Positions 26,128 through 26,537 are shown, counted from the stretch's first letter. The stretch is 32,000 bases of DNA from Xylella taiwanensis (GCF_013177435.1 NZ_CP053627.1:1770001-1802000), one strand, 5' to 3'. Notes: a model not told the origin generated them from the sequence alone. Translations and numbers: made by a program.

Positions 26128-26316
26128 TTACGATCTGAATAGCGCAACCCAGGCGCTGCCCATAAGAGCACTTGCCGTACCTACAGCCGCACCCAGCGGG
26201 CCAAAGAGTATATAGCCAACGGTCGCACCCGCAGTAACGCCAACAGCAACATTTTCAACAAACTCCATGTCGGCACCGTCGACAGATTCGATTTCGTGGA
26301 TTTCAAGTTCACGCAT
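26128..26316 (-). CDS. Bacteriocin-like precursor peptide A (62 aa): double-glycine-type leader plus glycine-zipper body
   Basis: MRELEIHEIESVDGA | DMEFVENVAVGVTAGATVGYILFGPLGAAVGTASALMGSAWVALFRS. The leader matches colicin V MRTLTLNELDSVSGG position for position. TTAAGGAG lies 12 nt upstream of the ATG. Confidence 0.7.
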   Translation of the reverse strand: MRELEIHEIESVDGADMEFVENVAVGVTAGATVGYILFGPLGAAVGTASALMGSAWVALFRS

Positions 26317-26360
26317 TGGATTACTTAACTCCTTAATATTAATAGCAGTAAGCTGATAAA

Positions 26361-26537
26361 TTAGAACAAATTCAGAATAACACCGGTGATGCCACCAACC
26401 ACTGTACCTACAACAGCGCCTGGTACATTGCCAATAAGACCACCGGCATACCCACCAGCTGAGGCACCGGTCAAGAAGGCCGAAGTCCAGCCCTGACCAT
26501 CCACTTCTACAGCTTCTTCAAACGTTAACTCTCTCAT
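26361..26537 (-). CDS. Bacteriocin-like precursor peptide B (58 aa): MREL leader plus glycine-zipper body
   Basis: The internal ATG of track ORF 26361..26597 has TTAAGGAG 7 nt upstream. Translation is MRELTFEEAVEVDGQ GWTSAFLTGASAGGYAGGLIGNVPGAVVGTVVGGITGVILNLF. It lies 44 nt upstream of peptide A on the same strand. Confidence 0.7.
   Translation of the reverse strand: MRELTFEEAVEVDGQGWTSAFLTGASAGGYAGGLIGNVPGAVVGTVVGGITGVILNLF

Follow-up and report, generated by a model that had tools for sequence, protein, structure and literature searches.

The question raised by this locus is what two very small adjacent genes next to clp in Xylella taiwanensis encode, and whether their products work together. 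The genes lie on the minus strand of a stretch of 32,000 nucleotides (nt) of the chromosome (GCF_013177435.1, NZ_CP053627.1:1770001-1802000), referred to here as the window, and a reading of that sequence alone (the original prediction) had proposed that they specify a tandem pair of double-glycine-leader, glycine-zipper peptides, a microcin or colicin V-like locus that might be a two-peptide bacteriocin. Both open reading frames (ORFs), B and, downstream of it, A, were reproduced with the coordinates and spacing that had been given (Table 1), and each is preceded by the ribosome-binding site TTAAGGAG, read from the sequence 7 nt upstream of the ATG of B and 12 nt upstream of that of A. Our analysis indicates that the locus is probably a bicistronic operon encoding two unmodified class II double-glycine-leader precursors resembling those of bacteriocins and microcins. 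The pair is real and ordinary, being one more orthologue of a peptide class that has already been annotated.

The leader of A, MRELEIHEIESVDGA, is of the canonical 15-amino-acid double-glycine type, with L-12, E-8, I-7, V-4, G-2 and A-1. That of B, MRELTFEEAVEVDGQ, has the same length and fits at L-12, E-8, V-4 and G-2 but departs from the type at -1 (Gln) and -7 (Ala), and because of these two residues the cleavage site of B is uncertain. M, R, E, L, E-8, V-4, D-3 and G-2 are common to both leaders, and the codons used for common residues differ as had been noticed (B/A: aga/cgt, gag/gaa, tta/ctt, gtg/gtc and gat/gac). A strict search pattern, defined as a canonical double-glycine leader opening an ORF of 40 amino acids or more in any of the six frames, was matched in the window by A alone, and a relaxed form with position -1 left free was matched by A and B only; the leader pattern exceeds chance, with means of 0 (strict) and 0.015 (relaxed) matches per window in 200 dinucleotide-preserving shuffles. 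The N-termini are acidic and amphipathic with a net charge of -4, and no signal peptide, lipobox or cysteine could be read in either sequence. That A and B might be recent duplicates of one another was also considered and rejected: BLASTP between them gave E = 8.2 with the likeness limited to the leader, which bears out the earlier view that no recent DNA duplication is involved.

Against Pfam, A matched MccV with 22.2 bits where the cut-off is 27, its residues 1-52 aligning with positions 1-50 of the 104 in the profile, and Bacteriocin_IIc with 16.3 bits (cut-off 27.1), while B matched MccV (PF17508) with 17.8 bits and Bacteriocin_IIc (PF10439) with 17.2 bits; the comparison with PF10439 and microcin models that had been proposed earlier thereby did find these families, with every match below its cut-off. 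The MccV matches of A, of B and of every Xylella homologue begin with residue 1 at profile position 1, which agrees with the claim that the A leader aligns in register with that of colicin V, the positions in common being M-15, R-14, L-12, E-8, I/L-7, V-4 and G-2. On the NCBIfam E492_microcin model the score of A was 14.2 bits (cut-off 50), and no NCBIfam Blp model matched B at E <= 10, for which reason the GenBank name of B, 'Blp family class II bacteriocin' (EWS77204.1), probably derives from a Pfam-type model.

Word-indexed homology searches with A and B returned Xylella proteins only, and it took a profile, built from A, B and three Xylella homologues and searched against 1.84 billion representative proteins, to recover the wider family. 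This search yielded 75 proteins at E <= 1e-3, about 60 of which are peptides of 48-126 amino acids with the same layout, namely M-R/Q-E-L-T/S-x-x-E-I/L-x-x-V-x-G-(A/G/S) followed by a glycine zipper. Among 63 aligned members, 47 matched MccV (best 3.4e-10) and 42 matched Bacteriocin_IIc (best 9.3e-12); the NCBIfam E492 microcin model was matched by nine and class IIb models by two, the latter being lactobin A/cerein 7B (1.7e-7) and lactococcin G-alpha. G-2 is present in all 63 members, V/I-4 in 62, L-12 in 60 and E-8 in 58. Position -1 is occupied by Ala in 25, Gly in 24, Gln in eight, Ser in three and Thr, Glu and Asp in one each; Gln at -1 is a recurrent variant inside the family, yet lies outside the accepted GG/GA/GS rule. 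Taken together, the MccV register, the profile family and the exporter linkage seen in Luteimonas mean that the original assignment to a microcin or colicin V-like family with double-glycine leaders holds at the level of the superfamily.

In Luteimonas sp. WGS1318 a homologous pair lies between an HlyD-type gene and an exporter gene, with a hydrophobic ORF, resembling one found after the pair in Xylella fastidiosa, directly behind the A-type gene (Table 1). The exporter has Peptidase_C39 (3.7e-36), ABC_membrane and ABC_tran domains, the layout of a peptidase-containing ATP-binding cassette transporter (PCAT), and this operon context supports the bacteriocin reading and suggests that the Xylella locus is a stripped-down orphan. 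A scan of a genome collection gave matches in Luteimonas and Stenotrophomonas and none in a Xylella record. The B-then-A order recurs on two metagenome contigs, one of which (L016) has the end of an HlyD-type gene, matching that of Luteimonas, directly before the pair. The mapping of synteny that had been called for therefore places B-then-A in six contexts and at least two genera: X. taiwanensis, the X. fastidiosa chromosome, X. fastidiosa prophages, an IMG/VR contig, Luteimonas and a further locus (L015). Among the fetched loci, which carry L numbers, every B-type gene with sufficient downstream sequence is followed by an A-type gene, and the spacer in all B-A loci other than that of X. taiwanensis measures 29-58 nt. 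A search with the Luteimonas PCAT returned no Xylella protein among the matches listed (the best 120, with 72-76% identity, besides the entry of the query itself at 100%), those with a named source coming from Xanthomonas, Pseudoxanthomonas, Lysobacter, Luteimonas and Stenotrophomonas. In X. fastidiosa a cvaB gene (XF1220) is annotated at a different locus, and since this lies far from the X. fastidiosa pairs, export in trans is the natural inference.

Other arrangements were seen in the wider family. The Stenotrophomonas sp. HITSZ_GD locus (L014, 3652-4155) has a single member of 59 amino acids that exceeds the Bacteriocin_IIc cut-off (28.2 versus 27.1 bits) and is followed by an 88-amino-acid hydrophobic ORF, an orphan arrangement with no exporter in the first 9 kb of the locus. 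In a metagenome lineage (L017-L019; L017 ~2060-3200) an A-type gene occurs without a B-type gene, together with a 61-amino-acid hydrophobic ORF and three more double-glycine-leader peptides, adjoining a divergent HlyD-type gene; here the family makes up a larger island of several peptide genes.

Table 1. Position and description of the B-A locus, its flanking features in the window and comparison loci
Feature	Location	Strand	Description
Peptide B precursor gene	26361-26537	minus	58 aa from ATG: leader MRELTFEEAVEVDGQ + core GWTSAFLTGASAGGYAGGLIGNVPGAVVGTVVGGITGVILNLF
Peptide A precursor gene	26128-26316	minus	62 aa: leader MRELEIHEIESVDGA + core DMEFVENVAVGVTAGATVGYILFGPLGAAVGTASALMGSAWVALFRS
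B-A spacer	26317-26360	minus	44 nt, holds A ribosome-binding site TTAAGGAG
Conserved upstream block, ~250 nt	26538-26790	minus	B ribosome-binding site, long 5' untranslated region, -10-like motif
Hairpin 3' of A stop codon	26082-26113	minus	12-bp stem, 8-nt loop, then UAUAUUUC
Third-gene remnant (candidate immunity)	25916-26067	minus	Alignment with X. fastidiosa + tblastn
Insertion-sequence remnant, rve_3 (C-terminal part of transposase core)	25195-25431	plus	Pfam, sub-threshold
clp	27492-28292	minus	Adjoins B-A locus
Glycine-zipper protein, 153 aa	22409-22870	minus	Rick_17kDa_Anti 1.2e-8
84-85-aa gene copies	L007 1378-1632; L021 4001-4255; L025-L027 6001-6258
Luteimonas sp. WGS1318 operon	L013		HlyD_3 protein (6.6e-20), 58-aa B-type, 64-aa A-type, 62-aa hydrophobic ORF, 704-aa exporter

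A and B could also be ordinary, non-exported glycine-zipper membrane proteins with a fortuitous likeness to a leader. Both have weak Pfam matches to the glycine-zipper families Rick_17kDa_Anti, Gly-zipper_Omp and C19orf12, PHROGs returned weak glycine-zipper matches only, and a PDB sequence search found glycine-zipper look-alikes only, for example OmpA-family and phage cargo proteins, which the family profile matches as well. The Pfam matches are sub-threshold and span the Gly-rich core only, however, whereas the leader, with its invariant G-2, is the best-conserved part of the family; moreover, A and B lack a signal peptide or lipobox, and homologous pairs are flanked by an HlyD-type gene on one side and the gene of a C39-peptidase ABC exporter on the other. 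We regard this explanation as highly improbable. A glycine-zipper outer-membrane lipoprotein, tried as a separate candidate, was rejected on the core-only, sub-threshold Pfam matches and on acidic N-termini that have neither signal sequence nor lipobox cysteine.

The predicted mature form of A has 47 amino acids, a charge of -2, a grand average of hydropathy (GRAVY) of 1.02 and an average mass of 4675.3 Da; that of B has 43 amino acids, a charge of 0, a GRAVY of 1.13 and an average mass of 3992.5 Da, or a predicted 3935.5 Da should cleavage fall after G16. The stacked GxxxG motifs that had been described in both bodies are present, eight in mature B and three in mature A. AlphaFold2, supplied with the family alignment, modelled B with a mean predicted local distance difference test (pLDDT) value of 84.9 as a leader helix (residues 6-13), a break (14-17) and a core helix (18-57), and A with a pLDDT of 80.3 as helices 6-12, 17-38 and 40-61, the core being kinked at a conserved G-P-x-G; in both models the leader is helical, the helix breaks off precisely at the G-x motif, and the core beyond it is helical over a long stretch. 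The best PDB match of the A model in Foldseek was microcin E492 on ManYZ (7dyr_A; template modelling score 0.70, root-mean-square deviation 0.8 A over 46 columns, probability 0.97), which at E = 1 is not significant and serves as a lead rather than a test; for the B model 7dyr_A came in fifth place.

The course of events we propose is as follows. Both precursors would be translated from strong Shine-Dalgarno sites on one transcript, and their acidic 15-residue leader helices would be recognised by a CvaB-like PCAT, working with an HlyD/CvaA-type adaptor and TolC, the genes for all of which would lie at other sites in the genome. The leader would be cut after Gly-2/X-1 on export, freeing the 47-residue A and the 43-residue B, and the uncharged or anionic glycine-zipper helices would then enter the inner membrane of related bacteria, where either membrane integrity would be lost or a membrane protein blocked.

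The relatives of the pair in X. fastidiosa are of two kinds. At the clp-tcdA site of that species there is a diverged pair in the same order, a 59-amino-acid B' (annotated 'Blp family class II bacteriocin') and a 62-amino-acid A', followed by a 63-amino-acid ORF, and the DNA of the window is collinear with it through clp, the upstream block, B, A, the hairpin and the first codons of the third ORF. The closest relatives of A and B are not these chromosomal copies but a prophage pair present in strain 9a5c and other strains, with 77-79% identity to B and 63% to A. The A homologue there is XF_1694 of 9a5c, the only close homologue of A; XF1694 and its 58-amino-acid partner have the same order and spacing, a homologous upstream block and MREL leaders, but are cargo in the tail module of a myovirus-like prophage, whereas the X. 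taiwanensis pair is chromosomal. The prophage genes run in the order tail tube, assembly chaperones, 629-amino-acid tape-measure protein, B, A, three toxin-antitoxin-type genes on the opposite strand (MazE-like, ParE and DUF6290) and a Dit-like baseplate gene. Five viral contigs in IMG/VR have the B and A cargo or a variant of it, and BLASTN of positions 24900-27500 of the window against a phage genome collection gave no match. In X. taiwanensis each peptide forms a single-sequence cluster on 31-32 contigs, and the 24 contigs read for B all have an identical context, so that the pair is found in that species in one chromosomal setting only. Exact matches to A and B, as to the flanking Clp and TcdA proteins, came from X. 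taiwanensis records alone.

Homology between the window and the prophage begins about 250 nt 5' of B, which in the phage is just past the tape-measure stop codon, and ends at the stop codon of A; these boundaries mark out a self-contained cassette of approximately 660 nt. Identity along it is mosaic. The X. taiwanensis coding sequences are closer to the prophage copy (B, 82%; A, 77%) than to the X. fastidiosa chromosomal copy (64% and 56% respectively), while the proximal 150 nt of the 5' untranslated region (UTR) have 65% identity to the prophage and 72% to the chromosomal copy, and the downstream flank of 120 nt has 43% and 55%. This mosaic suggests that phage cassettes and the chromosomal locus have exchanged sequence.

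The cargo slot of the prophages, the gap between the tape-measure and Dit-like genes (L001-L006 ~5400-7200, L021 and L024-L028), holds either B and A or a single gene for a peptide of 84-85 amino acids (Table 1). The latter, which lies behind an upstream region homologous to that of the B-A cassette, looks like a shuffle of modules: a leader of B type (MREL.FEE..KV.GQGW) is joined to a core that is A-like in its FGPxG (4e-8 in BLASTP against A) and to an MccV-like DYxYSHP tail, which resembles the MccV stretch GGAIYDYASTHKPNP. X. fastidiosa De Donno has two identical genes of this kind, B9J09_RS06930 and B9J09_RS06345, each directly after a 1,890-nt tape-measure gene, and these have been reported to be among the most abundant De Donno transcripts in vitro, rnpB and ssrA aside; a 2025 paper likewise located a 'Blp' gene among prophage genes. 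The cvaC-1/2/3 and cvi genes of X. fastidiosa, by comparison, form a separate locus with precursors of about 100 amino acids and a linked immunity gene. MREL leaders are common to all these X. fastidiosa peptides, those of the B'-A' pair included.

The block upstream of B aligns with the DNA that lies 5' of the pair in X. fastidiosa, in the prophage cassettes as well as on the chromosome, and the identities of its proximal 150 nt given above stand against a shuffled baseline of 28%. An extended -10-like motif, TGATATTAAT (~26671-26680), is conserved. We infer that the block comprises the promoter and leader of a bicistronic transcript, because the TGnTAT(T/A)AA motif is conserved and the sister cassette is expressed in another species. 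An RNA element in the 5' UTR was considered and rejected, there being no Rfam match and a fold no better than that of shuffles (z = -0.5), and a small upstream ORF of the prophage copies is, from the alignment, not conserved in the window. The hairpin that had been noticed after A was recovered by the terminator scan and by folding, with a free energy of -18.7 kcal/mol (z = -3.9; 0 of 200 shuffles fold equally well), and is probably a terminator, perhaps a partial one, closing the B-A transcript. The homologous hairpin of X. fastidiosa has 12 bp and differs by one compensatory change from A-U to G-C and one change from C-G to U-G.

Control by Clp through TGTGA-N6-TCACA sites was likewise rejected for the window, where 12 matches with up to two mismatches were found against 17.9 expected and only a two-mismatch site lies near the promoter. 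As an observation on the prophages, three of four aligned copies (L006 and both L007 copies) have a perfect CRP/Clp palindrome of this form, at ~5560-5580 in L006 and at ~130-150 and 1210-1230 in L007, just 5' of the TGnTATAAA -10-like motif, and the fourth (L003) has one mismatch; the equivalent position of the window has only TGTCAcataatTGACg. In both Xylella species the pair has clp beside it on the chromosome, which makes Clp a possible regulator of the phage copies.

Behind the pair, X. fastidiosa and Luteimonas each have one intact hydrophobic ORF of 62-63 amino acids, and one only; the intact 63-amino-acid homologue (ACB92235.1) was found on 208 X. fastidiosa contigs. These ORFs belong to no Pfam and no PHROG family, and are candidate immunity proteins by position and hydropathy alone. 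No hydrophobic ORF follows the B-A copy of the X. fastidiosa prophage. In X. taiwanensis about 20 codons of a third gene (IKFHRLDGKVYICCYMADLV) still resemble the X. fastidiosa and Luteimonas proteins (tblastn, 11 of 23 residues identical, E = 0.009), and the maximum Kyte-Doolittle value in a window of 19 amino acids is 0.96 for this remnant compared with 2.25 for X. fastidiosa and 1.74 for Luteimonas; none of its three frames holds a hydrophobic segment of membrane grade.

Whether A and B act as partners, like the two halves of a two-peptide bacteriocin, seems to us about evenly balanced. Partnership is suggested by the recurrence of the B-then-A order and of a single small hydrophobic ORF across genera and contexts and by the GxxxG motifs in both peptides; for the two-peptide idea of the original prediction, the conserved order and the one ORF after the pair are supporting evidence that stops short of proof. 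The competing explanation, in which A and B are two independent one-peptide bacteriocins whose adjacency reflects tandem accumulation of toxins as in blp and microcin islands, is quite possible if somewhat doubtful. The prophage slot can carry one 84-85-amino-acid peptide in place of B and A, Stenotrophomonas has a single peptide with one hydrophobic ORF, the metagenome lineage of L017-L019 has an A-type peptide without a B-type one and with its own 61-amino-acid hydrophobic ORF, and A and B have no significant likeness beyond the leader. Independence does not, on the other hand, account readily for B-then-A pairing at 29-58 nt in six independent contexts and at least two genera, for a single candidate immunity ORF after the pair in X. 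fastidiosa and Luteimonas, or for stacked GxxxG helix-packing motifs in A as well as B.

Several findings weigh against an operon for two functional class II precursors in X. taiwanensis. Neither A nor B attains a curated Pfam or NCBIfam cut-off, B has Gln instead of Gly, Ala or Ser at -1 besides Ala at -7, and the structural match to MccE492 has E = 1. The mature peptides would be shorter than known class II microcins and have no C-terminal uptake domain. A keeps three GxxxG motifs compared with 10-11 in A-type relatives, most of the register having been lost, and is weakly constrained, with a ratio of non-synonymous to synonymous substitution rates (dN/dS) of 0.73-0.80 against the prophage copy. 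No consensus promoter emerged from a simple sigma-70 scan, the 32-kb window contains neither a PCAT nor an HlyD-type gene (the statement that the pair lies away from any exporter was correct for this interval), and the candidate immunity gene is a mere remnant, which is awkward for an active toxin.

Some of these findings would also fit a decaying relic, the genes still open in X. taiwanensis but the toxin system no longer working after loss of exporter and immunity: the immunity-like gene is down to some 20 recognisable codons, an exporter is absent from the window, an insertion-sequence (IS) remnant and low-GC DNA flank the pair, and A combines its high dN/dS with a degraded glycine-zipper register. 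We consider such decay unlikely. No damage is seen in either ORF, in the strong ribosome-binding sites, in the block upstream of B or in the hairpin, which has a compensatory change relative to X. fastidiosa, and both peptides form single-sequence clusters. B is, judged by its dN/dS of 0.37-0.43, under purifying selection, and the leaders are nearly unchanged between X. taiwanensis and X. fastidiosa, that of A being almost invariant. Furthermore, X. fastidiosa too keeps orphan pairs far from cvaB, and export in trans is apparently the norm in the genus. These points argue for continued function of the bicistronic locus.

A function directed at the producer itself, in autolysis, in release of extracellular DNA or vesicles or in biofilm maturation, as for the Nap peptides of Neisseria gonorrhoeae, is in our view very unlikely. 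No intact immunity gene accompanies the X. taiwanensis pair or the prophage cassette, and the sister cassette is expressed extremely highly in pure culture; there is also a precedent in PMC11798529, where bacteriocin-like peptides without antimicrobial activity are reported to drive autolysis. However, the Nap peptides are cationic whereas A and B are uncharged or anionic, and relatives of A and B stand in classical operons with exporter and immunity genes.

With respect to the history of the bacteriocin-like pair, the ancestral operon probably ran HlyD-type gene, B, A, candidate immunity gene, PCAT; it has stayed intact in Luteimonas and was probably reduced in Xylella, with decay of the candidate immunity gene as well in X. 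taiwanensis. A more far-reaching version, which we offer tentatively and think rather unlikely as a whole, is that the Xanthomonas-Xylella-Luteimonas lineage has an ancient family of two-peptide microcins, the Gram-negative equivalent of class IIb bacteriocins, that in Xylella would have become a self-promoted cassette of about 660 nt, moving between the chromosome and the prophage-tail slot and exported in trans; loss of immunity in X. taiwanensis could then have led to self-lysis or to a range limited to targets that are missing from the producer.

Compared with known systems, the pair resembles MccV and the class IIa microcins in the register of the A leader, in an unmodified, Gly/Ala-rich, uncharged or anionic hydrophobic core and in the linkage of relatives to HlyD-type and C39 exporter genes. 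It differs in having two peptides rather than one, no cysteines, and no exporter or intact immunity gene at the locus. Mature MccV has 88 amino acids, and class IIa microcins in general have mature peptides of about 60-90 residues that end in a module for receptor recognition or uptake and often contain a disulfide, whereas A and B have 47 and 43 residues, no cysteine and nothing beyond the glycine-zipper core. The class IIb two-peptide bacteriocins, such as lactococcin G and plantaricins EF and JK, are cationic products of Gram-positive bacteria encoded by adjacent genes, each with its own leader, and contain GxxxG motifs. A and B resemble them in their adjacent genes with separate leaders, the hairpin after A only, the GxxxG motifs of both peptides and, in relatives, one small membrane protein gene after the pair, but come from Gammaproteobacteria, are uncharged or anionic, and have no intact immunity gene in the window.

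The original prediction had left open whether the pair had been described before, and to a considerable extent the constituent peptides had. B carries its bacteriocin name in GenBank, A is a 'hypothetical protein' there (AXI83834.1) and a 'Bacteriocin' in UniProt (Z9JFM3), and XF1694 was listed in work of 2001-2004: a figure adapted from Michiels et al. (2001) includes XF1694 and XF1219 as hypothetical peptides of the double-glycine type, and Gram-negative genomes were screened for double-glycine leaders (Dirix et al., 2004). The literature also covers colicin V-like genes of X. fastidiosa together with its export machinery. Screens of Pantoea, Erwinia and Xanthomonas with cinful predicted class II microcins in genomes that encode PCAT and HlyD-type proteins (PMC13174018); in that work on plant-associated bacteria a GG, GA or GS cleavage motif was required, a condition that the G-Q of B would fail, and Xylella was not covered. 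A term search of that paper gave 0 occurrences each for 'two-peptide' and 'Xylella', and the passages it returned contain neither the B-A pairing nor the phage cassette. In the literature searched, nothing was found on X. taiwanensis bacteriocins, on a conserved B-A(-ORF) unit or on a two-peptide microcin.

What is added here is the B-then-A order in six contexts, the promoter-bearing prophage cassette and the immunity-gene remnant of X. taiwanensis, and the remaining interest lies in the possible two-peptide nature of the pair, in the Gly-Gln leader variant and in the mobility of a cassette with its own promoter. Should A and B prove to be partners, the two-peptide bacteriocin principle would be extended to Gram-negative bacteria; cleavage of B at its Gly-Gln motif would widen the spectrum of C39 exporters, which matters for mining filters that accept GG, GA and GS only. 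Xylella species are quarantine plant pathogens, X. taiwanensis being a pathogen of pear, and narrow-spectrum bacteriocins are candidates for biocontrol or diagnostic use.

The DNA around the pair is AT-rich, as had been reported: the GC content is 0.35 at 26641-26700 and 0.33 at 26701-26760 compared with 0.55 in sucA, values that match the earlier hand counts exactly, and that of the entire tcdA-clp interval is 0.44 compared with 0.51 for the window. Of the two neighbours that had been named, clp was confirmed as an adjoining ORF (Table 1). The supposed IS scar corresponds to the rve_3 remnant, for which the support is weak (21.9 bits, cut-off 26.5, E = 1.5e-4); about 450 nt around it (~25000-25450) are missing from the syntenic interval of X. 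fastidiosa in the alignment with L011, and this remnant is a feature of the flank, outside the functional unit. Between the clp stop codon and the cassette, about 450 nt (26940-27400; L011 5700-6200) are well conserved between X. taiwanensis and X. fastidiosa; neither a convincing ORF nor an Rfam match was found in this block, which might represent a regulatory region, a small RNA or the remains of a gene. The 153-amino-acid glycine-zipper protein encoded elsewhere in the window is, by synteny, pcp (PD_0757) of X. fastidiosa, a true member of the lipoprotein family whose models weakly cross-match A and B. Lastly, the clp ORF as called has 266 amino acids; its upstream ATG is probably not the real start codon, since Xylella Clp entries in databases mostly have 229 amino acids and some have 262.

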